Source of the DNA: an uncultured Eubacteriales bacterium
Lineage (GTDB): Bacteria > Bacillota > Clostridia > Oscillospirales > Acutalibacteraceae
Direction of reading: 5' to 3'
Assembly (NCBI GenBank): GCA_900321665.1
Contig: ONWY01000001.1
Location: forward strand, 1-27,484
Length of the DNA: 27,484 bases
Position numbers and translations under genes: made by a program. Under the pieces are notes generated by a model. The model was not told where the DNA came from, ran no database searches, and was given only the letters and a program-made list of their open reading frames with translations. This document shows positions 2,022 through 13,650 of this stretch, piece by piece. Each line of letters begins with the position of its first letter. Position 1 is the first letter of the stretch.

Positions 2022-2149
2022 ATCCCTTAGAGCGCAGAGACAGCTCGCGCTTGATAATGCTTAATAAAAAAACCGGTGCTACAGATCCCCTTAGAGCGCA
2101 GAGACAGCTCGCGCTTGATGGTGCTTGATAAAAAAACCGGTGCTACAGA
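2022..2149 (+). repeat. tandem duplication inside queA, period 64 nt (63 nt plus one extra C)
   Basis: 2024-2085 and 2088-2149 are 62-nt copies differing at 3 positions (A2056/A2057/A2063 vs G2120/G2121/G2127). Confidence 0.97.
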
Positions 2150-3030
2150 ACACCGCGTATTTTCCGATTTGACGGAAATCTTAATGCCCGGCGACAGCTT
2201 AATATTGAATGACACGCGTGTTTTACCCGCGCGCATCTATGGCGAGAAGATATCTACCGGTGCAGTGGTTGAATTTTTGCTTTTAAAGCAGCTTTCCGCA
2301 AGTCAATGGGAATGTATTGTCAAACCCGGCAAAAAGGCGCGAGAAGGTGCTGCATTTGATTTTAGCGGCATCATGCAGGGGACAATCACTCAGGTGCTCG
2401 AAACCGGCAACCGAATCATTGATTTTTCGTTTGAAGGCAATTTCTTCGAGCTTCTTGAAAAAATCGGCTATATGCCCATTCCGCCTTACATTAAAGAAAA
2501 GCTGGAGGATAACGAGCGCTATCAAACCGTTTATTCCAAGCATTTAGGCTCTGCAGCTGCGCCGACTGCCGGCTTGCATTTTACAAAGCAAATGCTGCAG
2601 GCATTGGAGCAAAAGGGCATTAACATCGGCTATGTGACTTTGCATGTCGGGCTTGGAACCTTCCGCCCTGTCAAGGCAGATAACATTGAAGAGCATGTCA
2701 TGCACTCCGAGCACTACCGCGTGCCGGAGGAAACCGCCGCGCTGATTAACGCTACTAAAGCCAAAGGCGGCAGGATTATTGCCGTTGGCACCACCAGCTG
2801 CCGCACACTTGAGACAGCGGCTGATGAAAGCGGAAAGTTGCAAGCGAGCGAAGGTGAGAGTAAGATTTTTATTTACCCCGGTTACCGCTTTAAGTGTATT
2901 GATGCGCTTATTACCAATTTTCACTTGCCGGAGAGCACGCTGATTATGCTTGTCAGTGCGCTGGCCGGCAGAGAAAATGTGTTGCGTGCATATGAAACAG
3001 CAGTGCGCGAGGAATACAGATTCTTTTCTT

Positions 3031-3049
3031 TCGGCGATGCGATGTTTAT
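3031..3049 (+). repeat. queA 3'-end core, copy A (inside the current gene)
   Basis: TCGGCGATGCGATGTTTAT; reads GDAMFIV* with stop at 3054-3056. Confidence 0.9.
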
Positions 3050-3076
3050 AGTTTAAAGGATGTATAAAAATTCACA

Positions 3077-3120
3077 TCATATAAACCGTAAGCATCGGCG
3101 ATGCAATGTTTATTCTATAA
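3077..3120 (+). repeat. queA 3'-end core, copy B, with upstream TCATATAAAC motif (att-like junction)
   Basis: TCATATAAAC (3077-3086), 8 nt, TCGGCGATGCAATGTTTAT (3095-3113); reads GDAMFIL* with TAA at 3118-3120. Confidence 0.85.
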
Positions 3121-3143
3121 TTTGTATATTAATATGATAGAAT

Positions 3144-3176
3144 ATTGTTGACAATTACATATTATTTGCATATAAT
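3144..3176 (+). promoter_or_regulatory. consensus sigma-A promoter of the TA operon, with a palindromic candidate operator over the -35 box
   Basis: TTGACA (3148-3153), 17 nt, TATAAT (3171-3176); ATTGT-TG-ACAAT palindrome at 3144-3155. Confidence 0.85.
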
Positions 3177-3199
3177 ATTATTGAAGGGTGGTGTCAATA

Positions 3200-3466
3200 A
3201 TGGCTCAAACTAATGTTAATATTCGTATGGATGAACAAACTAAAAAAGAGTTTTATGCTTTTTGTAATGAGATTGGTATATCTGTAAGTTCAGCTTTTAA
3301 TATTTTTGCTAAAACTGTTGTTCGAGAGCATAGAATTCCTTTTGAGATAACTACTGATGTTCCAAATTCAGACACAATAGCTGCTATCGAAAAAGCTGAT
3401 AAGGGTGTAGATGTTTTCGGACCTTTTAATACAGTTGATGAATTGATGGAGTCATTAAATGCTTAG
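3200..3466 (+). CDS. RelB/DinJ-family ribbon-helix-helix antitoxin
   Basis: MAQTNVNIRMDEQTKKEF...GISVSSAFNIFAKTVVREHRIPFEI. ATG 3200 is preferred to GTG 3188 because of the promoter position and the upstream GGGTGG; overlaps the toxin start. Confidence 0.92.
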   Translation: MAQTNVNIRMDEQTKKEFYAFCNEIGISVSSAFNIFAKTVVREHRIPFEITTDVPNSDTIAAIEKADKGVDVFGPFNTVDELMESLNA

Positions 3467-3737
3467 AATAGAATATACAGGTCAGTTTAAGAAAGATTAC
3501 AAACTCGCCATAAAAAGAAACTATGATATTAATGAGTTAGTTAATGTTATTAATATGTTGGCTAATGAAGAAAAGCTGCCGGAAAAATTCAGAGACCACG
3601 CATTAGTAAATTATTCTAAGAATGCTAATGTTCGTGAATGTCACATCAGACCTGATTGGTTATTGATATATAGAATCTATCAGGATAGACTCGTTTTAGA
3701 ATTATTGCGAACCGGAACGCATAGTGATTTGTTTTGA
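3459..3737 (+). CDS. yafQ: YafQ-family (RelE superfamily) mRNA interferase toxin
   Basis: FKKDYK, RDHAL, RECHIRPDWLLIY, RTGTHSDLF: the His/Asp/Trp/His/Phe residues conserved in YafQ are present. Confidence 0.93.
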   Translation: MLRIEYTGQFKKDYKLAIKRNYDINELVNVINMLANEEKLPEKFRDHALVNYSKNANVRECHIRPDWLLIYRIYQDRLVLELLRTGTHSDLF

Positions 3738-3742
3738 AAAAC

Positions 3743-3775
3743 AGGTGCAGGATTATCTTGCACCTATACTTTTTA
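3743..3775 (+). terminator. intrinsic terminator after yafQ
   Basis: AGGTGCAGGA-tta-TCTTGCACCT stem (one G-U pair) followed by ATACTTTTT. Confidence 0.75.
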
Positions 3776-3815
3776 TTTGTTATGATTATTCATAATAAAG
3801 GTACGATTATAAGAG

Positions 3816-3856
3816 TCATATAAACTATACACATCGATGCGATGTTTATCAGGTAG
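3816..3856 (+). repeat. queA 3'-end core, copy C, probably the displaced original queA terminus
   Basis: TCATATAAAC (3816-3825), 8 nt, TCGATGCGATGTTTAT. It reads DAMFIR* and its TAG (3854-3856) overlaps the tgt RBS AGGAG (3855-3859). Confidence 0.85.
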
Positions 3857-3865
3857 GAGAATACA

Positions 3866-4993
3866 ATGAAAATTATCAAACAAGAGGGAAGCGCGCGGCG
3901 CGGTGAATTTAAAACGGTTCACGGCACGGTGCAAACACCTGCTTTCCAAAATGTGGCGACAGCAGCTGCCATCAAAGGCGGGCTTTCGGCATTTGATTTA
4001 AAAGAAAATGCTTGCCAGGTAATGCTGTGTAATACTTACCACCTTCATTTAAGACCGGGTGATACCATTGTAAAACAGGCAGGCGGATTGCACAAATTTA
4101 CCGGGTGGAACGGTCCGATTTTAACCGACAGCGGCGGATTTCAAGTTTTTTCGCTTGCAAAATTAAATAATATAAAAGAGGAAGGTGTGACCTTTGCTTC
4201 GCATATTGACGGCAGACGCATTTTTATGGGGCCCGAGCAAAGCATGCAAATTCAGTCGAACTTAGGTTCCACGATAGCGATGGCTTTTGATGAGTGTGTC
4301 AAAAATCCTGCGCCGTATCGCTATGCAAAGGAATCAAGCGAGCGCACCATCCGTTGGCTGCAGCGCTGCAAGGCGGAAATGCAGCGGCTCAATGCGTTAC
4401 CGGATACCGTGAACCCGCACCAGCTGCTGTTCGGCATTAACCAAGGGTGCTGCTTCGAGGATATTCGTATTGATAATATGAAGCGCATTGCCGATATGGA
4501 GCTCGATGGCTATGCTATCGGCGGCTTGGCAGTAGGCGAGCCGAAGGAGGAAATGTACCGCATTATCGGCGAGGTAGAGCCGCATATGCCGGCAGATAAA
4601 ATTCGCTACTTGATGGGTGTCGGTACACCGGGGAATATTTTAACCGGGGTAAAGCTCGGGGTAGATTTATTTGATTGTGTGATGCCCTCGCGCAATGCAA
4701 GGCACGGGCATGTGTTTACTTGGGATGGTATCATAAACCTCAATAACGCGCGCTATGCCGATGACTTTGAGCCGATTGACGAGCGCTGCGATTGTGAGGC
4801 TTGCAGGCATCATTCGCGCGCCTATATTCGGCACCTGCTCAAAGCGGGCGAGATGCTCGGTATGCGCTTAGCGGTCATTCATAACCTGCATTTTTATAAC
4901 AAGCTGATGCAAAAAATCAGAGATGCCATTGAGCAGGGGAATTATGAGCAATTTTATCGCGAAAATGTAAACAAATTGGATACGCGCATATAA
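3866..4993 (+). CDS. tgt: tRNA-guanine transglycosylase (bacterial type)
   Basis: NTYHL, TDSGGFQVFSL, FDEC, GGLAVGE, RYLMGVG, FDCVMPSRNARHG, Zn site CDCEAC. Confidence 0.98.
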   Translation: MKIIKQEGSARRGEFKTVHGTVQTPAFQNVATAAAIKGGLSAFDLKENACQVMLCNTYHLHLRPGDTIVKQAGGLHKFTGWNGPILTDSGGFQVFSLAKLNNIKEEGVTFASHIDGRRIFMGPEQSMQIQSNLGSTIAMAFDECVKNPAPYRYAKESSERTIRWLQRCKAEMQRLNALPDTVNPHQLLFGINQGCCFEDIRIDNMKRIADMELDGYAIGGLAVGEPKEEMYRIIGEVEPHMPADKIRYLMGVGTPGNILTGVKLGVDLFDCVMPSRNARHGHVFTWDGIINLNNARYADDFEPIDERCDCEACRHHSRAYIRHLLKAGEMLGMRLAVIHNLHFYNKLMQKIRDAIEQGNYEQFYRENVNKLDTRI

Positions 4994-4998
4994 AATAC

Positions 4999-5027
4999 TT
5001 GCATTTCTTTTTATTTTCATATATAAT
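4999..5027 (+). promoter_or_regulatory. internal sigma-A promoter for yajC
   Basis: TTGCAT (4999-5004), 17 nt, TATAAT (5022-5027); GGAGG RBS at 5045-5049. Confidence 0.7.
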
Positions 5028-5057
5028 AACTAAGATATTGATTCGGAGGAAAATAGT

Positions 5058-5474
5058 ATGAATTTATTTACTTTAGCTGCAGCCGGTACCACAGGAACCG
5101 GTGTTAGCGGATTTTTTGGTAGCACATGGGGCATGCTTGTTTTAATCGGCGGTATGTTTGTTTTAATGTACTTTTTGATGATAAGACCCCAAAACAAAAG
5201 GCGTAAAGAAGAAGAGGAAATGAGAAGCAATGTGGAAATCGGCGATGATATTGTCACCATCGGCGGCATCATCGGCAAAGTTGTTTCCACAAAAGACGAT
5301 GCTTTGATTATTGAAACCGGTGCCGATAGAAACAAGATGAAAATCAGCCGTTGGGCAGTGCAGACCAACCTGACCAGGCAGGCAGCACAGCAGGAAGCAG
5401 CGCAAAAGGCGAAGGAAGCAAGAGAAGCTGCCAAGGCTGAGAAAAAGAAAAAGAAAGAAGAAGCAAAAAAATAA
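5058..5474 (+). CDS. yajC: preprotein translocase subunit YajC with a Lys/Ala/Glu-rich C-terminal tail
   Basis: One TM helix then YFLMIRPQNKR, GDDIVTIGGIIGKV; follows tgt. Confidence 0.96.
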   Translation: MNLFTLAAAGTTGTGVSGFFGSTWGMLVLIGGMFVLMYFLMIRPQNKRRKEEEEMRSNVEIGDDIVTIGGIIGKVVSTKDDALIIETGADRNKMKISRWAVQTNLTRQAAQQEAAQKAKEAREAAKAEKKKKKEEAKK

Positions 5475-5489
5475 GCATAAACAAATTCA

Positions 5490-5533
5490 TCCCGCAGTAT
5501 CTTTTAGTAAGAAGATATTGCGGGAGTTTTTTT
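5490..5533 (+). terminator. intrinsic terminator after yajC
   Basis: TCCCGCAGTATCTT / AAGATATTGCGGGA stem followed by G and T7. Confidence 0.8.
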
Positions 5534-5935
5534 ATGTTACAAAAAAGTTTAAAGCCACTCTTGAAAGCGACGCTTTTCACAATAGCAGCAGCGGCACTGC
5601 TTTATGGCTTGGCGGCATTGTTTTTGCTCAAAAAGCAAAGCAGCTCGCAAAGCTATTTTTATGCTGCCGTTGCCATTCACTTAGTCCTCGGCGCGCTGAT
5701 TACCGTGCTATTTCGCAAAGAGGATTACAGTTTTATTTATCTTTTTCCCCTCTTGCTGCTACAGCTGCTGTTACCGGTTGTGTTTCACAGCTTTGAATTA
5801 AAGTTTCTTTTACTACCGGCAAGCGTGGCGGCAGTGCATTTTTTAATCCGTTTCATCATAAAGCACAAGAAATCAAGCAAAAAAAGAAATATGCATCAAA
5901 TCAGGAGAAAATATGAAAGGCTACATAAAAAATAG
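5534..5935 (+). CDS. small multi-pass membrane protein (position suggests YrzE/TIGR04086-like)
   Basis: About four hydrophobic segments and a basic C-tail; GGGAG 7 nt upstream. The family call rests mainly on its position after yajC. Confidence 0.6.
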   Translation: MLQKSLKPLLKATLFTIAAAALLYGLAALFLLKKQSSSQSYFYAAVAIHLVLGALITVLFRKEDYSFIYLFPLLLLQLLLPVVFHSFELKFLLLPASVAAVHFLIRFIIKHKKSSKKRNMHQIRRKYERLHKK

Positions 5936-6533
5936 TATTTTCAGCACAAAGGTTTTTATTAAGGATAATACATTAAGTATCATTTTTATTACTCTTTTTA
6001 CCATCGGCAGCTTAGTGGGCACACTGGCGCTCAATTTCGGGAAGGATACCTCCGCGTCTTTGATTTATCTGTTAACGACCTATTTTAAAGAAAACGCGAG
6101 CCTTTCCGTAATTGCTCTTTTCAGTAGAAATTTGATTAGTGCGCTTGTGTATTTAGGGGTGATGTATATTGGAGGACTGTGCGCAATCGGATTGCCTGTA
6201 GTAGGAATAATCCCTTTATTAAAGGGAATTGCGCTTGGTATGATTATATCTTATCAATACGTATATAATGGTATTAAAGGCTTTTTGTATGCATTGGTGA
6301 TTATTCTATTGCCGCAAGCGCTTTTACTTGCAATTTTGAGCATCGCTTACGGGGAAGGTATCTATATGAGCTTAACGGTTTCCAACGGTATCTTTAACGG
6401 CAAGCCGAGAGAAACAAAATACCGACTGAGCTTTATGACCTTTTCCAAAAGGTACTTAATTTTCGCAGTCGGTATTGTGATAGTGTCTATTATTGAGGCT
6501 GTGCTCGATTCCGTGTTTTCAAAGGTGCTTTAG
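5913..6533 (+). CDS. spoIIM: stage II sporulation protein M-like membrane protein
   Basis: 206 aa polytopic protein with the SpoIIM-like pattern (F.IGSLVG, LFSRNL, GLCAIGLP, KGIALG, LLPQALL, SIIEA); AGGAG RBS. Confidence 0.8.
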   Translation: MKGYIKNSIFSTKVFIKDNTLSIIFITLFTIGSLVGTLALNFGKDTSASLIYLLTTYFKENASLSVIALFSRNLISALVYLGVMYIGGLCAIGLPVVGIIPLLKGIALGMIISYQYVYNGIKGFLYALVIILLPQALLLAILSIAYGEGIYMSLTVSNGIFNGKPRETKYRLSFMTFSKRYLIFAVGIVIVSIIEAVLDSVFSKVL

Positions 6534-7507
6534 CCTTCGTTTGCTTTGGAAAGCGGGTTAGCATTCATAGCGTTTCTGATTTGTCCGGAATCGGTATGGG
6601 TGTAGATTTCGGTGGTATTCAGGTTTTCATGTCCTAATATTTCTTTGAGCACCAAAACATCCGCATCACCGCTTTGGTACATCAGCGTTGCTGCCGTATG
6701 GCGCAGCTTGTGCACCGAAAAGCCTTGGTCGCCAAGACCTGCTTTATCGAGATACTTTTGCACCATTTTTTGCACCGATTCGCGGCTCATGCGCTTTTTT
6801 TGAGCAGAGATAAAGAGGGCTTTTTTATCAATTACGCCATCCACCGGGCGCACGCGCATATAATCTCTAATCGCTTTTAAGCAGGCATTATTGAGGTAAA
6901 CCACGCGCTCTTTATTGCCTTTACCGGTTACATCGATGGTGCAATCCTCGCGAATGTCACCGTAATTGAGCGAGCACAGCTCTGCTAAGCGCAAGCCGCA
7001 GTTTAAAAAAAGCGTAATAATGCAATAATCTCTCTCTTTATTTTTGCCTTCAACAGCATTTAAAAGGCGCGTTGCCTGCTCAAGGGTTAAGTATTTCGGG
7101 CGCGCCGCTTTTTTAAATTTCGGCATCTCTAAATCAATCATCGGGTCTTGCGGGATGCGCTTTACCTTGCGATACATATAATCAAAGTAGGATTTCAGTG
7201 TCGATACCTTGCGCGCTCTTGTGCGGTCGGTATTGCCGCGCTCATCCTTGCAAAATACCAAGTAGTTATAGGCATCCATCAGGGTGATGGATGCGATAAA
7301 GGCATCATCAATATCGCGAATATCAATTTCATCAAATGCACAATCGGCAGGGCAGAGGGCTCTGCTTTTTTTTAGAAAGCGGAAAAATGTGCGCAAATCC
7401 GAAGCATACTCTAAGGTGGTTAAGTCGGATTTTCCTTTGATAACGCGCAAATGGGTGACATACTCCTGCACACTCAGCGGCAAATATTGTAATTCTTCTT
7501 TTCTCAT
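6530..7507 (-). CDS. xerC: XerC-like tyrosine recombinase (conserved chromosomal clostridial type)
   Basis: Catalytic set is complete: GLR, TGKGNKER, HKLRH, LGH, TEIYTH. 325 aa, no phage-integrase arm-binding extension, no adjacent mobile genes. Its stop overlaps the spoIIM stop by 4 nt. Confidence 0.88.
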   Translation of the reverse strand: MRKEELQYLPLSVQEYVTHLRVIKGKSDLTTLEYASDLRTFFRFLKKSRALCPADCAFDEIDIRDIDDAFIASITLMDAYNYLVFCKDERGNTDRTRARKVSTLKSYFDYMYRKVKRIPQDPMIDLEMPKFKKAARPKYLTLEQATRLLNAVEGKNKERDYCIITLFLNCGLRLAELCSLNYGDIREDCTIDVTGKGNKERVVYLNNACLKAIRDYMRVRPVDGVIDKKALFISAQKKRMSRESVQKMVQKYLDKAGLGDQGFSVHKLRHTAATLMYQSGDADVLVLKEILGHENLNTTEIYTHTDSGQIRNAMNANPLSKANEG

Positions 7508-7517
7508 GGGGCACCTC

Positions 7518-7532
7518 GTGAAACAGTTTCAC
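7518..7532. repeat. 7-1-7 palindrome next to the xer RBS
   Basis: GTGAAAC-A-GTTTCAC; RBS GAGGTG on the minus strand at 7512-7517. Confidence 0.7.
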
Positions 7533-7541
7533 AAAATAACA

Positions 7542-7556
7542 AAATTACACAAAATA
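7542..7556. promoter_or_regulatory. 15-bp exact copy of one arm of the 8091-8126 palindrome, candidate operator half-site
   Basis: AAATTACACAAAATA at 7542-7556 equals 8093-8107; partial copies at 7528-7538 and (inverted) 8151-8161. Confidence 0.7.
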
Positions 7557-7566
7557 CTATATTACT

Positions 7567-7594
7567 ATTGTAACAGAATTAGAAAATAATGCAA
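7567..7594 (-). promoter_or_regulatory. sigma-A type promoter for the xer gene
   Basis: Minus strand TTGCAT (7594-7589), 16 nt, extended -10 TGtTACAAT (7575-7567). Confidence 0.55.
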
Positions 7595-8090
7595 GCATAA
7601 CCTTAAGTTAAATCATTTAGAATAGGCAGGAAGAGGCACCTATAGAATAAGTAAGTCCGTAAATAGAAACCGGCAGCGAAGATGTATTAAATAACTTTTT
7701 TCTTAATTATAAAACATTGTATTTATGAGCATTGCGATATAATATCTAAGAAAAAAACAAAAGCCGGTATTTATATCAAATATAAATAATTTAAATGATA
7801 CTTTGATGGTTCAAAATATAATTATCGGATACAGTTCTATCGAATAAAAATTCTTTAAATGATACAATGATGCCTGCGATTAAAATGATCAAATACAAAA
7901 TGGAAATAGAAATAGTAATTTAAAACTGTTTCAAGGCAAGCAACGCTTAATGCACAAAGCTGAGAATATAAGTTTATCCTAAAAAGGCTACAATAAGTTT
8001 AATGTAATAAACAAAAAAGCAAAAACCAATTATCAGGCAAAAATGTGCGAAAATTCCATAAAACAGCAAAAAACGGCTTTTTTCACTCCC

Positions 8091-8126
8091 CTAAATTACA
8101 CAAAATATACATTTTGTGTAATTTAG
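8091..8126. repeat. perfect 36-bp palindrome, candidate dif-like recombination site
   Basis: CTAAATTACACAAAAT-ATAC-ATTTTGTGTAATTTAG. On the minus strand it parses as ...ACAAAA-TGTATA-TTTTGT... The repeat is certain; the function is inferred. Confidence 0.9.
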
Positions 8127-8240
8127 ACTATATTTTTCTCCCTCCTTCATTTTTTGTGAAATAATCGATTCCCTTTCTCTTTTTAACTTTAAAGATGATG
8201 AAAAGTGAAAGGATTTGTCTGCCGATATGTGTGCATTATT

Positions 8241-9239
8241 CTATTTTGCAATTGCCGTATTCTCTACTTTCGGTTTATCTTTGAAAACAACTGCTGTAAG
8301 CTTTTCAATTTGCTTTCTGAAAATAAATGCCGCCAATACGACTGCTATTCTGTAAGCTGTATTGAGTGCCGCAACTGTAATGGTATTCATTTCCAAATCA
8401 CTCCAAAGCAGACCAATCGGTGCGATATAATAGATAATGCTGCCGAGTAAAGCGCCGAATACATTTACCGCTAAATAAGATAATGCGGCTTTTTTTGCCT
8501 GCTTATTCTTCCCCACCGAGGATAACAGAACCGGCAGCGATGCGCCGATACCGATGCCGAGTGTTAAAAAATAGCAGCTGCGAAAGCCGACAGCGCCCGT
8601 TGCGCTGAAGGTTTGCAAAATACCGACGGATGCGGAAGCGCTCTGCAGTAATGCCGCGATGGCAAGCCCGGCGCATAAGAGCAGTGGCGGAAAATTTAAC
8701 CGATTGACCCAATCTAAAAGCGCTTTATTGCCTTTTATCGGTTCCACAGCTTGTGTGATAAGGTGAATACCAAGCATTAAAACGGCAAATCCGAGCAGTA
8801 ATTCACCGACTCGCCTAACATTCCTCTTTTTGCCGAAAAGCTTTAAAATAATGCCTCCTGTGGCACATACGGCGCTAATGACAGATGCGGAAAATACAGA
8901 GAGAATGCCTGCATTGATTTCAAGCGAGGAATATGCGATGAGCCACCCTGTGACAGCGGTTCCCGCAATCGAGCCCAAGATAAGCGGCAAAGCCTGTTGA
9001 AATCGAATAATACTGCTTTCCACCAAACCGACCACCATGGCGCACACGGCTGAGGAGGATTGTAAAAAAGCTGTTACTCCCGTACCAAGCAGTAAGCCCT
9101 TTAACGGATGCTTTGTTACTCGCGCGAGAACCGGCTCAAGCCTTGTTGCGCCCAATTTTTTCAAATGGTCGCTCATCAGGTTTAAACCGAATAAAAAGAG
9201 TGAAATTCCAAGCAACAGATTCAAAACGATGCATATCAT
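8241..9239 (-). CDS. Na/Pi cotransporter family protein (short form, no PhoU-like tail)
   Basis: LFLFGLNLMS, LGTGVTAFLQSSSA, second repeat LLQSASASVG, LGIGIGAS. Confidence 0.85.
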   Translation of the reverse strand: MICIVLNLLLGISLFLFGLNLMSDHLKKLGATRLEPVLARVTKHPLKGLLLGTGVTAFLQSSSAVCAMVVGLVESSIIRFQQALPLILGSIAGTAVTGWLIAYSSLEINAGILSVFSASVISAVCATGGIILKLFGKKRNVRRVGELLLGFAVLMLGIHLITQAVEPIKGNKALLDWVNRLNFPPLLLCAGLAIAALLQSASASVGILQTFSATGAVGFRSCYFLTLGIGIGASLPVLLSSVGKNKQAKKAALSYLAVNVFGALLGSIIYYIAPIGLLWSDLEMNTITVAALNTAYRIAVVLAAFIFRKQIEKLTAVVFKDKPKVENTAIAK

Positions 9240-9273: not shown

Positions 9274-9303
9274 AAAAAAATTAGTCCGCAAGCGGACTAA
9301 TTT
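9274..9303 (-). terminator. intrinsic terminator after divIC
   Basis: AAATTAGTCCGC-aa-GCGGACTAATTT inverted repeat followed by a T-run on the minus strand; overlaps the divIC stop. Confidence 0.8.
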
Positions 9304-9614
9304 ACATCGTAATAAATTTTTTCATCGGGAAATACATAGCCTAAGCGCTCTCTGGCTATACGTTCTATAATATCGTTTTCATCAGCATTTTTGAGCAAAT
9401 TTTTGGTATTTTTATTATCATCGATAATTGCATCATATTGGCTCTTTGCGAGCTTTATTTTTTCATTGGTATCGCCGATTTTGATGCCTGTTTCAATTGC
9501 GGTTACTGCCAAATAGATGACAAGGCAAGTAAAAGCAAAGGCGACAATCAAGCTTCTCAAGGGTTTAGCTTGCCTTTGTTTTCTTTTTTTCCTTTTGACC
9601 GGATTTTTCGGCAT
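9297..9614 (-). CDS. divIC: septum formation initiator (DivIC/FtsB family)
   Basis: Basic N-terminus, one TM helix, coiled coil, IERIARERLGYVFPDE; follows yabQ. Confidence 0.88.
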   Translation of the reverse strand: MPKNPVKRKKRKQRQAKPLRSLIVAFAFTCLVIYLAVTAIETGIKIGDTNEKIKLAKSQYDAIIDDNKNTKNLLKNADENDIIERIARERLGYVFPDEKIYYDVN

Positions 9615-10095
9615 TTTGTGCTTTTTTGCTCCTTAAACTTACTTTGCCTTTTGCCAATCGGGATAGTTTTGCTTGAAAAGACCTGATAAAATTATACACC
9701 ACATCATATGCCTTTTTCAATATATTTTTAAATTTATTAATAATATATTTACAGTGCCTAAAGACAGGGCGAAAGAGCTTATCGGATAAAAAGGATTGCA
9801 CGGCGAGCGCAATTTTATCGCTTCTTTTCTTCAGCAAAATCAAAGTGAGTATCAGAGCAGTTAAAAAAGCAATCATTTGGTAAACGCGCAGCGCTGCATC
9901 CTGCATCACGATATTAACACAAACGATTAATAACACCGAAAGCAAGCAATAAATAAAATCACAAATGACTGCCGCCTTCCCTTTGATTGCTTTCGAGCAA
10001 AGCAGCAGTGCTAAAAGTCCGTCTACCACGCCGGCGCACAGGCTGTATAGAAAGAATTTTGATTGCGCGAGAAAACCGATATCGTGGTAATACAT
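9565..10095 (-). CDS. yabQ: spore cortex biosynthesis protein YabQ-like
   Basis: Hydrophobic N-half (FLYSLCAG, CDFIY, LRVYQ); lies between yabP and divIC. Confidence 0.8.
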   Translation of the reverse strand: MYYHDIGFLAQSKFFLYSLCAGVVDGLLALLLCSKAIKGKAAVICDFIYCLLSVLLIVCVNIVMQDAALRVYQMIAFLTALILTLILLKKRSDKIALAVQSFLSDKLFRPVFRHCKYIINKFKNILKKAYDVVYNFIRSFQAKLSRLAKGKVSLRSKKAQNAEKSGQKEKKKTKAS

Positions 10096-10376
10096 TATTT
10101 CATCAGCCTGCCAAAAAAGGAAGTGCTTTTTTGAGGTGTACTTTCGCTGTAAAAGACAGATTGAATCAATCCGTCAACCAGCAGCTCGCCGCTGTCGACA
10201 TCGAGCTTCGCAATTTTCAAATTCTCGCCGGTGATGACCAAATCCCCTTTTTGGGTTTTTGCACTGATGTTAAAATCATCAAAATTATCCACATCCTTGA
10301 CACCGGTCAGTCGGAGCTTTTCTCTATTTTCAATGTATAGGTTGGATTGAGTATAGATGCCTTCGTTTTCGTTCAT
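10095..10376 (-). CDS. yabP: sporulation protein YabP
   Basis: IENREKLRLTGVKDVDNFD...GENLKIAKLDVDSGELLVDGLI. ATG 10376 is preferred (GGGTGG 8 nt upstream); GTG 10388 is the alternative start. Confidence 0.92.
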   Translation of the reverse strand: MNENEGIYTQSNLYIENREKLRLTGVKDVDNFDDFNISAKTQKGDLVITGENLKIAKLDVDSGELLVDGLIQSVFYSESTPQKSTSFFGRLMK

Positions 10377-10407
10377 ATCATTCGCCACCCGTAAAAGTTT
10401 TTATTAA

Positions 10408-10436
10408 AACATATGCGGCGAAGGCGTGGGATATGC
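10408..10436 (-). promoter_or_regulatory. sporulation (sigma-E-like) promoter for yabP-yabQ
   Basis: Minus strand GCATA, 16 nt, CATATGTT, matching ATA-N16-18-CATAnnnT; yabPQ is sigma-E controlled in B. subtilis. Confidence 0.55.
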
Positions 10437-10437
10437 C

Positions 10438-10680
10438 CTATTTGATCATTTTATACATTTTATCCGCATCCTCTTTGCGGACTGTTTCCAAAACATTGAG
10501 GACTTCATACTCGTGCGAAGAGGCGCCTAAATTGACTGTCAGCACATCCCCTGCCTTCACGGCATAGGATGCGCGTGCCGCTTTGCCGTTGACTAAGATT
10601 CTGCCTGCATCGCAAGCATCGTTTGCAATGGTGCGCCGCTTAATGATTCTCGATACCTTCAAATATTTATCTAATCTCAT
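10438..10680 (-). CDS. rqcP: S4-domain RNA-binding protein, RqcP/YabO family
   Basis: MRLDKYLKVSRIIKRRT.A...C..GRI.VNGK; lies between hup and yabP. Confidence 0.88.
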   Translation of the reverse strand: MRLDKYLKVSRIIKRRTIANDACDAGRILVNGKAARASYAVKAGDVLTVNLGASSHEYEVLNVLETVRKEDADKMYKMIK

Positions 10681-10741
10681 TTTTTCACCGCCTTTGTAGG
10701 TATTATATCATATATTTTTTAAAATAGAAACCGCTTTGCGG

Positions 10742-10774
10742 AAAAAAGAAACTGCCTCACGGCAGTGAGACAGT
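10742..10774 (-). terminator. intrinsic terminator after hup
   Basis: Minus strand ACTGTCTCAC-tgcc-GTGAGGCAGT followed by TTCTTTTTT. Confidence 0.8.
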
Positions 10775-10803
10775 ATCTTTATAAAAATGCATTAGGATTC
10801 TAA

Positions 10804-11076
10804 TTATTTAACAGCATCCTTGAGAGCTTGACCTGCTCTGAATGCAGGAAGCTTAGAAGCCGGAATTTCCATAGCTTCGCCTGTTCTCGGATTGCGGCCT
10901 TGCTTAGCAGCTCTTTCTCTGACTTCAAAAGTACCAAAGCCAACAAGTTGAACCTTCTCGCCCTTCTTAAGAGCATCAGTGATAGCAGCAGTTACAGCGT
11001 TGATTGCCTTTTCTGCATCCTTGTTGCTAAGAGCGCTTGCATCTGCTACTGCTTTAATAAGATCCTTTTTGTTCAT
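10804..11076 (-). CDS. hup: DNA-binding protein HU
   Basis: MNKKDLI...[32 protein letters not shown] 11076 has a GGAGG RBS (the ORF-track start at 11112 is too long). Confidence 0.97.
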
Positions 11077-11119
11077 TTTTAATGTCCTCCAAAATAATAT
11101 TTCTAAAGGCATAAAGCCT

Positions 11120-11923
11120 TTATTTGGTTAGTTTCTTTGCTTCCTCCCAAAGAATGTCAAGCTCTTCGAGTGAAGCGGTTTTCATATCGATCGAGCGCGC
11201 GGCAGCTAATTGTTCCACAATACTGAAACGCTTGATAAATTTTTCGTTTGCAAAAGTGAGCGCCTGCTCGCTGTCTGCCTTGATAAATCTTGAAACATTG
11301 ACACAGCTGAATAATAAGTCGCCCAACTCTTCAAAAGCTGCGCTTTCATTACCGCGGCGAATTTCAGCAGCAAGCTCATCACACTCGCTATGCACCTTTT
11401 CAAGCGCACCGCTTGCATCCTCCCAATCAAAGCCGACCTTTGCCGCCTTTTTTTGGATTTTTTCCGCGCGCATCAGCGCCGGTAATTCCTTAGGGATGGT
11501 CTGCATAGCTTGGGTGGCGGATTTCAACTGCTTGGTTTCGGTTTTTACCCTGTCCCAGGTGTTGAGCACTTCCTCCGCCGTCTCGCAATGCTCTTTACCA
11601 AAGACATGCGGGTGGCGCACAATCAGCTTTTGCGCAAGCTCATCGACAACATCATCAAAAGTGAAACTGCCGGCTTCACTTTCCATTTGCGCATGCAACA
11701 GTATTTGCATCAGCACATCGCCAAGCTCCTCGCGCAGCATCACCGGGTTATCTTTATTAATTGCCTCAACTACCTCATAGGTTTCCTCAATGAAATTTTT
11801 CTTGATGCTTTCATGAGTCTGTTCCCTATCCCAAGGGCAACCTTCGGGGGTACGCAGCAGGCGGATGATTTCCACTAAATCGGAAACACCATATTTAGTT
11901 TTAAACTCGAAATTTTCTATCAT
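11120..11923 (-). CDS. mazG: nucleoside triphosphate pyrophosphohydrolase MazG
   Basis: [40 protein letters not shown], second domain ELGDLLFS. Confidence 0.95.
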
Positions 11924-11940
11924 TTACCACTATATATTAT

Positions 11941-11969
11941 ATTTTATCCTAAAACATGAATTTTTTCAA
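11941..11969 (-). promoter_or_regulatory. possible sigma-A promoter for mazG
   Basis: Minus strand TTGAAA (11969-11964), 17 nt, TAAAAT (11946-11941). Confidence 0.45.
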
Positions 11970-13650
11970 GTACTTTTGCGATTTTTTCGCCTGCAGGCAG
12001 CATTAATACATCCTCTTTTGAGAGCGCTTTAATCAAAAGCAGCACAGCAGCATACACAATTACAGCAGCTAAAATAGCGGCAATGGTATTTACCGTGTTA
12101 CCGAAATGCGCAAATTTAAGAAGTAAATAGTGGGTTCCCCATGCTGCCGCGCCGGAAAACAGCGATGCAATCACAGGCTTAACGGCAACGGATACAAAAT
12201 TGAATTTTACTTTTGTATATTTAAACAAATAGAATAAGTTGACCGCTACGCTGATGGCATAGCAAGCCACTGTGCTGATAGCGGCACCCTTGATGTTAAA
12301 CTCGGGCATACCGACAAGCACATAGTTTAATACAATTTTCACGGCGCAGGCAATACCGAAGGAAATTGCCGGTACTTTTGCCTTGCCGATTGCCTGCAAC
12401 AGCGTTGTAACAGGCGAAGAAAGCGCGTATAAAAACAGAGATATACCGAATATTGCCAAAATATCTTTGCACATAAAAGGTATATCCGGCTGGCTTCTGC
12501 CGTAGAGCAAGGTCAATATCGGTTGAGAAAGTACAGCCATACCGATACCTGCCGGCATGGAAATGAGCATACAAATTCTCAAGACGGACTCAATGCTGAT
12601 GCGGATATTCTTTTTATCATTCACTGCCCAATACTGCGCAAGCGCCGGTAAGGAGCTGACACCAAGCGTTAAGGTGATTTGCGGCACCATATTCCTCAGT
12701 GTTTCATCCACATCGAAGCAACCGTAAAGGTACACATTGAGTTTATCTGTCCCCTTCGGGATAAAGGGATACATTTCGCGAATTATATTTTCACCGTTGG
12801 CAACTGCAACTGCGAGCCTGTTTTGTACGGTCGCCGCATCTATCAAGGTGGCAACATTTGAGATCAAAGAGGTCAGCACAATCGGGATTGCCAGGTTAAT
12901 TAAAGTGCGCAAAATTTGCTTGTTGGAATCGGCTTTCGGTGCCAAAAACAGCTCTTCCTCGGTAAAACCGAAGCCGTCTTTTTTCATCTTTATCCACAAA
13001 TAGATTTGCGAACCGAGTGTGCCGAAGGTAACACCCAAGATAGCTGCCGAGGCTTCTATCGGGTAGCGCACCTCGGGCTTTGTGATGCCGTTGGCTTGAC
13101 AATAGCGAATAGCAAGGTAGGTTAAGCCCAAGCCGAACACAAGCTTTACGAGGCTTTCCGTGATTTGAGAAATCGCAGTCGGGAACATATTTCTCATGCC
13201 CTCGTAATAACCGCGATAAGCGCTCATGACGCAACAAATCAGAATTGCCGGTGCTATGCACAAAATGACCGGCAAGGCTTCGGGCGCTCTGGCCACATAT
13301 TTTACATAGGGGTAAGCAACCGCCGCGAGCAATAAAGTGCCGGCTGTGCCCGTAACAATAAATGCGCGCAGTGAAACCTTAAAAATACTCTTAACATTGT
13401 TATATTTCCCGAGTGCCATATTTTCGGAAATCAGCTTGGAAACGGCAATCGGCAAGCCTGCCATGGAAATTGACCAAATCGGTAAATAAATTTTGTAGGC
13501 AGTTGTATAGTACCCCATACCGATACCGCCGATGTAATTGGTGATGGGGATTTTATAGATAGCACTAATGAGCTTCACGATGATAGTTGAAGCAACGAGA
13601 ATCAACGCACCGCTTAAAAGTGTTTGGTTTTTTCGTTGGTTGTTAGACAA
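11944..13650 (-). CDS. MOP-superfamily flippase (YabM/SpoVB/MurJ-like polysaccharide biosynthesis protein)
   Basis: LSGALIL...IVKLISAIYKIP, GLPIAVSKL, YRGYYEG, PTAISQITE; many TM helices; usual position upstream of mazG/yabN. Confidence 0.9.
   Translation of the reverse strand: MSNNQRKNQTLLSGALILVASTIIVKLISAIYKIPITNYIGGIGMGYYTTAYKIYLPIWSISMAGLPIAVSKLISENMALGKYNNVKSIFKVSLRAFIVTGTAGTLLLAAVAYPYVKYVARAPEALPVILCIAPAILICCVMSAYRGYYEGMRNMFPTAISQITESLVKLVFGLGLTYLAIRYCQANGITKPEVRYPIEASAAILGVTFGTLGSQIYLWIKMKKDGFGFTEEELFLAPKADSNKQILRTLINLAIPIVLTSLISNVATLIDAATVQNRLAVAVANGENIIREMYPFIPKGTDKLNVYLYGCFDVDETLRNMVPQITLTLGVSSLPALAQYWAVNDKKNIRISIESVLRICMLISMPAGIGMAVLSQPILTLLYGRSQPDIPFMCKDILAIFGISLFLYALSSPVTTLLQAIGKAKVPAISFGIACAVKIVLNYVLVGMPEFNIKGAAISTVACYAISVAVNLFYLFKYTKVKFNFVSVAVKPVIASLFSGAAAWGTHYLLLKFAHFGNTVNTIAAILAAVIVYAAVLLLIKALSKEDVLMLPAGEKIAKVLEKIHVLG

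Follow-up and report, generated by a model that had tools for sequence, protein, structure and literature searches.

The window, meaning the whole stretch of 27,484 nucleotides analysed here, belongs to a MAG of an uncultured member of the Oscillospirales (1.72 Mb, 294 contigs, 73% complete). Within it, the genes for a divergent Xer-family tyrosine recombinase (P0001) and a Na/Pi cotransporter-family protein are separated by a gap that contains a long palindrome. The features of this locus were as follows.

5913..6533, plus strand: spoIIM-like gene (TIGR02831, 54 bits, below cut-off), convergent with xer and marking the flip in gene orientation
6530..7507, minus strand: divergent Xer-family tyrosine recombinase of 325 aa, P0001 (Pfam PF00589 and PF02899)
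7518..7532, no strand assigned: second palindrome, GTGAAAC-n-GTTTCAC (7-1-7), from the alignment of loci
7542..7556, minus strand: half-site, an exact 15-nt copy of one arm and 2 nt of the centre, in direct repeat with 8093-8107
7567..7594, minus strand: xer promoter-like element, TTGCAT-16 nt-(TGT)TACAAT, read from the sequence
7557..8079, no strand assigned: AT-rich spacer between the full site and the half-site, ~28% GC (over 7557-8092)
8080..8094, minus strand: one-sided conserved flank, TTAGGGGAGTGAAAA, from the alignment of sites (family consensus TnAGGGGAG)
8091..8126, no strand assigned: extended palindrome with 16-nt arms and a 4-nt centre, from the repeat analysis of the window
8095..8122, minus strand: candidate dif core of 28 bp (11-6-11), ATTACACAAAA-TGTATA-TTTTGTGTAAT, from direct reading, conservation and single-copy occurrence
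8241..9239, minus strand: Na/Pi cotransporter-family gene, upstream of the site, from profile matches

The gap at 7508-8240 measured 733 bp, with a GC content of 28% compared with 44% for the window, in agreement with the sequence-only reading, which had described an AT-rich, gene-free gap of ~730 bp. That reading had also placed the palindrome ~585 bp upstream of the recombinase gene; with the start codon at 7507, the core lies 587 bp upstream.

The recombinase P0001 combines a SAM-like N-terminal domain (PF02899) with a Phage_integrase domain (PF00589). Its catalytic set was complete (R173, K199, H266, R269, H293 and Y302), consistent with the earlier description of a xerC-like gene with all catalytic residues. 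The family placement of P0001 was based on HMM scores, and its best NCBIfam matches were Xer models only, each of them under its equivalog cut-off. The nearest model, XerA (NF040815), was sub-threshold at 201.9 bits (cut-off 220), followed by XerC at 200 bits (cut-off 335), XerD at 190 bits (cut-off 330), XerS (NF003462) at 157.7 bits (cut-off 267), with good alignment in the C-terminal half only, and XerH at 63 bits. The nearest solved structures by sequence were Pyrococcus XerA (4a8e, 101 bits) and E. coli XerD (96 bits), and the relatives of P0001 carry the database names 'recombinase XerC' or 'XerD'. The MAG also encodes an FtsK gamma domain (PF09397, 93 bits, contig G000:C180).

The palindrome consists of two 16-nt arms (8091-8106 and 8111-8126) that are 100% complementary and enclose the 4-nt centre ATAC. 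It had been announced as a perfect 36-bp palindrome; this is right for the arms, but the element as a whole is a 16-4-16 structure of the hairpin type and lacks strict self-complementarity. When read on the minus strand from 8122 to 8095, the core gives ATTACACAAAA-TGTATA-TTTTGTGTAAT, in keeping with the 11-6-11 partition originally proposed, and direct comparison reproduced the 8/11 match of the right arm to the E. coli XerD arm. The central hexamer TGTATA is the same as that of E. coli dif; however, it is particular to the genus of the window, the hexamer varies among relatives, and the family consensus is TGAATA. Since the consensus centre differs, the sharing of TGTATA by this genus and E. 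coli is a coincidence.

Two properties that might have marked the site as dif were dropped as evidence. Palindromy was set aside because long perfect hairpins are frequent in the MAG, where dozens with arms of at least 16 nt were found, mostly terminators. Likeness to the dif sites of E. coli and B. subtilis was also abandoned, as the 20/28 match of the palindrome to E. coli dif was equalled at two unrelated genomic places. The full 28-bp site occurred once in the MAG. Five exact copies of its 11-nt arm were present in the 1.72 Mb compared with 1.1 expected, and three of the five clustered within 580 bp at the window locus. A canonical dif of the Firmicutes type was not found in the MAG or in the genus, and none was found within 100 kb of the terminus in two closed relatives (G033 and G016). 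One further palindrome, with 22-nt arms and TTGTATAAT-like words (G000:C63:5738-5787), proved unrelated; it is made of TTGTATACAA words, resembles an operator and occupies a divergent promoter region.

To what extent the site recurs was assessed across the order. Orthologues of P0001 were present in 36 of 41 relatives, with amino acid identities of 42-90%, and an 11-6-11 palindrome of the same family lay within 1.5 kb upstream of xer in ~22 of the 30 fetched loci. Conservation upstream of orthologous xer genes, which the sequence-only reading had proposed to look for, therefore extends across the order. The site often overlaps the xer promoter or leader and lies 28-160 bp upstream of the gene in many relatives. 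A whole-genome pattern search, in which the reversed pattern served as a control and gave ~0 matches, retrieved the 28-bp site from 23 of the 41 relatives and from 131 of 301 genomes of the order that were at least 90% complete. It was nearly always found once per genome, so that the single-copy occurrence anticipated for the MAG holds among the positive genomes as well; the rare double sites were located around small elements or at contig ends. The frequency by family was uneven, with 16/21 or 19/21 genomes positive in some families and 0/22 or 0/21 in others.

The consensus of 25 non-redundant sites was ATTAtACAAAA-TgaAtA-TTTTGTaTAAT, and in the extended palindrome the outer 4-5 pairs varied among species. 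Changes in the arms were symmetric in 18 cases and asymmetric in 7, and such mirrored changes are expected if one protein species reads both arms. Identical arms were found in the window and in most relatives, including the XerD-positive genomes described below. The site was unlinked from xer in several genomes, with distances of 8 kb in G033 and 100 kb in G028, and likewise in G027, G023, G039, G013 and the genomes of family f27, where the best-scoring Xer-like genes were at least 44 kb from the site; in several of the unlinked relatives, site and xer were on different contigs. A position upstream of xer is thus correct for the window and many other loci but fails as a general rule. Judged from these alignments and searches, a putative symmetric dif-type site is widespread in rumen and gut Oscillospirales.

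Conservation was not confined to the palindrome. With the asymmetric centre as reference, the flank TnAGGGGAG never changed sides, and contigs of other organisms in public runs matched the window over 8086-8122 only. The conservation of this flank implies a functional unit larger than the palindrome itself. An assignment of the flank as the xer ribosome-binding site was dropped because it is retained at sites with no gene behind them, and it is not a simple permissive KOPS, its G-rich motif pointing away from the site. The flank resembles a KOPS/SRS motif and could represent a polar barrier, an FtsK loading signal or a site for an accessory factor. We suggest that it contributes to the polarity of a site that is otherwise symmetric.

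The position of the site on the chromosome was determined in closed genomes. In five closed chromosomes the site was located at 44.5-51.4% of the chromosome from dnaA, and in these and one 500-kb contig the GC-skew maximum was between 27 bp and 12 kb away, as listed here.

G033, 2.23 Mb: site at 1,145,998 (~51%), dnaA at 325, skew maximum at 1,143,585, 2.4 kb away
G016, 2.54 Mb: site at 1,130,782 (~44.5%), dnaA at 431, 12 kb from the skew maximum
G233, closed: site at 1,613,651, 49.5% from dnaA, 243 bp from the skew maximum
G259, closed: site at 2,457,412, 50.2% from dnaA, 27 bp from the skew maximum
G093, closed: site at 196,238, 50.3% from dnaA, 5.9 kb from the skew maximum
G220, 500-kb contig: site at 270,737, 39 bp from the skew maximum

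In the window, the cumulative GC skew peaked at 6.6 kb, the skew being positive between 2 and 8 kb and negative over all of the remainder beyond 8 kb; genes were encoded on the plus strand at 2076-6533 and all on the minus strand at 6530-27484. A location at the skew switch, raised beforehand as a property to look for, was accordingly observed in the closed relatives, and the flip in the window falls at 6.6-8 kb. The pattern was ambiguous in G028, which exhibited two plus-to-minus GC-skew switches, suggesting an inversion or another rearrangement around the terminus. These switches are ~85 kb apart (G028:C1:90000-185000), one near the site and the other ~25 kb from xer. As xer is distant from the site in G033 and in the f27 genomes, the link with the terminus is a property of the site rather than of the gene.

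A further observation concerns the genes beyond the Na/Pi cotransporter-family gene. The region at 9297-13650 of the window contains a cluster of yabP, yabQ, a mazG-domain gene (possibly yabN), a polysaccharide-synthesis/MurJ-family gene (possibly yabM) and a possible divIC. A cluster of the yabP/yabQ type is origin-proximal in Bacillus subtilis; in the window it directly adjoins the terminus.

Several mobile elements carry or border copies of the site. In two genomes (contigs G230:C24 and G289:C66), two sites 1.5-2.4 kb apart enclosed a gene for a rolling-circle replication protein (REP_ORF2-G2P) like those of filamentous phages, and one of the paired sites had a degenerate arm. Paired sites around a Rep gene, one of them degenerate, are the signature of Xer-exploiting integrative elements, and these elements would have entered by integration at the site. 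The G289 element also encodes a short tyrosine-recombinase fragment of 207 aa (L096 1496-2119). Separately, a tyrosine-recombinase fragment was noticed in G093 (C1:197547-197999, a 203-aa frame) 1.3 kb from the dif-type site; being similar in size to that of G289, it may point to a family of small site-targeting elements. A 25/28 mimic of the site, TTTATACATAA-TGAATA-TTTTGTATAAT, was located in an intergenic position of the microvirus MG945286.1 (circular, 5.3 kb, elk faeces), in which an integrase is absent. In addition, an 8.8-kb 'Bacteriophage sp.' scaffold from human faeces (MT836776.1, 8672-8704) contained a complete site with the bacterial-type flank TAGGGGGAG near its end, which may be a prophage-host junction or host DNA in the virome.

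In this lineage, the palindrome very probably functions as chromosomal dif. The interpretation that we favour, and hold to be probable as a whole, is that 8095-8122 together with the flank to ~8086 constitutes chromosomal dif and that the neighbouring Xer most likely acts on it alone. After replication, FtsK would bring the two site copies of a dimeric chromosome together at the septum, where one 325-aa Xer monomer would bind each of the four identical 11-bp arms. Tyr302 is predicted to cleave at the edges of the 6-bp centre, and two successive strand exchanges would convert the dimer into monomers. The recombinase would most likely work as a homotetramer without a partner, because the arms are identical and XerD was not found in the genus.

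If the enzyme is indeed homomeric, the asymmetric centre and the one-sided flank would supply the polarity of the reaction. The fully specified form of this proposal, in which a single Xer acts on a symmetric dif while the asymmetric 6-bp centre and the TnAGGGGAG flank dictate in which order strands are exchanged and in which direction FtsK activation runs, is speculative and we regard it as rather doubtful. Were it true, polarity from centre and flank would be a new answer to the Xer polarity problem, in an abundant gut order.

Whether one recombinase or two act on the site is where the best-surviving alternative arises. It also takes the site as a true dif, but one served by a classical pair, with P0001 as the XerC equivalent, XerD or a paralogue unassembled, and the near-identical arms read by both enzymes; we consider it unlikely, although several relatives speak for it. 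Canonical XerD was found in 11-12 of the 41 relatives, with TIGR02225 scores of 325-330 bits, at the cut-off of that model. Its gene belongs to a proC-spoIIM-xerD operon and, in G033, G016, G018, G040 and others, lies beside or near that of the P0001 orthologue, in genomes with the same perfectly symmetric site. G033 contained exactly two tyrosine recombinases, namely XerD and the P0001 orthologue. Since XerD is kept alongside a symmetric site in these relatives, symmetry alone is no proof of homomeric action. Furthermore, P0001 scores slightly higher with the XerC model than with the XerD model, and a second recombinase could have escaped assembly in a MAG that is 73% complete. Additional Xer-like genes also count against a single enzyme: G007, a member of the window's genus, has an extra one of 301 aa, and the f27 genomes encode several Xer-like paralogues. 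Two of the relatives' loci display the operon clearly, with XerD as the last gene of proC-spoIIM-xerD (L031 7766-10341 and L032 4285-6835).

Against such a pair, XerD was not found in any of the eight genomes of the genus (73-99% complete, including genomes of 99, 98 and 96%) or in ~70% of the relatives, many of them 97-100% complete. It was likewise not found in G028 (100% complete), and the three closed f27 genomes had none above the cut-off. In the 99%-complete congener G002, the other tyrosine recombinases were weak matches, with at most 125 bits on the XerD model. The arms of the site are perfectly symmetric and covary, and the syntenic position of XerD is empty in the window, where spoIIM directly abuts the convergent xer gene. 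The spoIIM-xer junction itself looks as if xerD had been deleted.

A canonical dif with a XerC/XerD pair elsewhere had been named among the findings that would speak against a single-recombinase system; neither a canonical dif nor XerD was found in the genus. The single-recombinase claim is therefore upheld for the genus by the lack of XerD in its eight genomes, but does not extend to the whole clade, ~30% of the relatives having kept XerD. Given that the site is dif, a system with one recombinase is likely in this genus, the grounds being the identical arms and XerD not being found there. Across the clade, a two-enzyme system seems to be giving way to one with a single enzyme.

The gap between site and gene holds further conserved elements, all of them close to xer. 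Immediately downstream of the promoter-like element of xer, six species of the genus retain the half-site (7542-7556) as TAGTATTTTGTGTAATTTT, and the block TTGC..TGnTACAAT of that element is kept in the genus alignment, although a promoter consensus scan gave 7567-7594 no score. The second palindrome sits between the half-site and the xer ribosome-binding site. Its sequence GTGAAAC-n-GTTTCAC was invariant in eight loci of two genera (L001-L008) and recurred with one left-arm mismatch (ATGAAACTGTTTCAC) in L023, from a distant family; it is probably the site for some regulator of xer. The arm copy is best read as a putative autoregulatory half-site, through which the recombinase bound at the xer promoter would probably repress its own gene. 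Alternatively, an old integration could have left it as a scar.

In comparison with these three conserved blocks adjoining xer, the spacer of ~550 bp could not be aligned even between congeneric species. A conserved element or small gene within it was for this reason dropped from consideration, and no Rfam family was detected in the spacer region. Two imperfect tandem repeats of 63 nt, 73% identical, occupy 7771-7897 of the spacer at the terminus, and congeners share a block of weak conservation around TCCGATAA..AATGATAC.

The arrangement of repeats around this spacer leads to another explanation, in which the adjacent recombinase would serve a 551-bp segment, either mobile or invertible, whose two ends are the full site and the half-site, as in an att pair or a phase switch. 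The segment is bracketed by the 15-nt direct repeat (7542-7556 and 8093-8107) and by a 14-nt inverted repeat (7542-7555 and 8111-8124), and its sequence is wholly different between species. On the other hand, six species of the genus have an identical layout and the left repeat lacks a second arm; no joints of excision, deletion or inversion were seen in the contigs of four public runs, a search of low power because contigs were used. A mobile segment would also leave the terminus position and the order-wide conservation of the site unexplained, and we consider this explanation very unlikely.

It is highly improbable that the palindrome is only an operator for xer transcription, bound by the recombinase or another dimeric regulator and without a role in dimer resolution. 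Such a function would suit the many relatives whose site falls 28-106 bp ahead of the xer start codon, overlapping the promoter or leader, as well as the arm copy on the xer promoter in the genus. However, the site remains single-copy at the skew switch even where xer is on another contig or at a distance of between 8 kb and more than 100 kb, and its duplication around rolling-circle elements and its mimic in a microvirus fit a crossover site. The chance that the site is the intrinsic terminator of the upstream Na/Pi cotransporter-family gene is negligible: it does lie 115 nt past the stop codon, folds as a 16-17 bp hairpin and was flagged by the scan as terminator-like, solely on the plus strand, where no gene ends, but only 3 of its 16 pairs are G-C, the tail on the strand of that gene (minus) is GGGGAGUGAAAAAAG with no U-tract, as the sequence-only reading had noted in calling it a poor terminator, and, unlike terminators, its primary sequence is kept across families beside unrelated genes and once per genome.

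The dif reading can be placed among known systems. A close counterpart is XerS/difSL of streptococci and lactococci, in which one recombinase acts at a terminus site (reviewed in PMC5357621; Le Bourgeois 2007; Nolivos 2010). The two systems have in common their occurrence in Firmicutes, an Xer-type enzyme, a terminus site often linked just upstream of the gene, and the presence of FtsK. In contrast to difSL, an atypical site of 31 bp (PMC5357621), the site described here is 28 bp long (11-6-11) with identical arms and a one-sided flank. P0001 differs from XerS in length (325 aa versus ~356) and reaches 158 bits with NF003462, compared with the cut-off of 267. Linkage to the gene is broken in many genomes of the order and amounts to 587 bp in this genus.

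The 28-bp 11-6-11 format, the terminus location and the use by integrative elements are shared with the XerC/XerD-dif system of E. coli and the CodV/RipX-dif system of Bacillus subtilis. The arms are of the general XerC/XerD-dif type nnTnnnCAnAA, with the 8/11 match given above, and some relatives have XerD in a spoIIM-linked operon like that of B. subtilis. Unlike in the two-enzyme systems, the arms are identical, the genus and most relatives are without a canonical XerD, no canonical dif sequence is present, and P0001 falls under both the XerC and the XerD equivalog cut-offs, which sets it apart from the canonical pair.

Dimer resolution by a single recombinase has been described for XerL/dif of Legionellales (PMC9765430) and XerH/difH of Helicobacter and Campylobacter (PMC5241119). 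The system proposed here resembles these, and archaeal XerA/dif, in its likely use of a single recombinase for dimer resolution, but it differs from XerL, XerH and XerA in protein subfamily and in lineage (Clostridia, Oscillospirales). The arms of difH are asymmetric, whereas those of the Oscillospirales site are perfectly symmetric. The dif of Legionella was revealed through a mobile element mimicking the site (PMC9765430), and mobile elements mimic the host site in the Oscillospirales as well. Among IMEXs, the CTX, TLC and VGJ phages, the gonococcal island and the Enterogokushovirus prophages reside at dif (PMC7062461). As with these, the rolling-circle Rep elements and the microvirus found here contain the host site or are bordered by copies of it, of which one is degenerate. 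The differences from known IMEXs are the Oscillospirales host site and recombinase and the additional tyrosine-recombinase fragment of the G289 element; for the elements found here, integration is what the paired sites would indicate.

The site was not described in the Xer review (PMC5357621), which does not mention Clostridia, or in the tyrosine-recombinase classification. The rows retrieved from the dif survey of Kono 2011 (PMC3025954) included a few for Clostridium and Desulfitobacterium and, among these rows, none for Oscillospirales, Ruminococcus or Eubacterium; one prediction in them, for C. botulinum, was ~174 degrees from the skew shift. Searches of the literature with the sequence and related terms yielded no published description of the site or of Xer/dif/IMEX in Clostridia, in accordance with the initial remark that the site was not known to have been characterised. 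The finding is a variant of the single-recombinase Xer/dif systems, and the one-sided flank and the promoter half-site are its new details.

Oscillospirales of the Ruminococcus and Faecalibacterium types are among the dominant bacteria of the rumen and gut. For thousands of fragmentary MAGs, the 28-bp site is an exact marker of the terminus, and it accounts for the assembly breaks and hypervariable DNA found there. It would also be the entry point for small integrase-less phages and rolling-circle elements in the Oscillospirales. Together, the site and the enzyme make a simple recombination tool for bacteria in which genetics is currently absent. Furthermore, XerD has been lost patchily while the symmetric site stayed unchanged, which makes a natural series for studying the transition from two enzymes to one.
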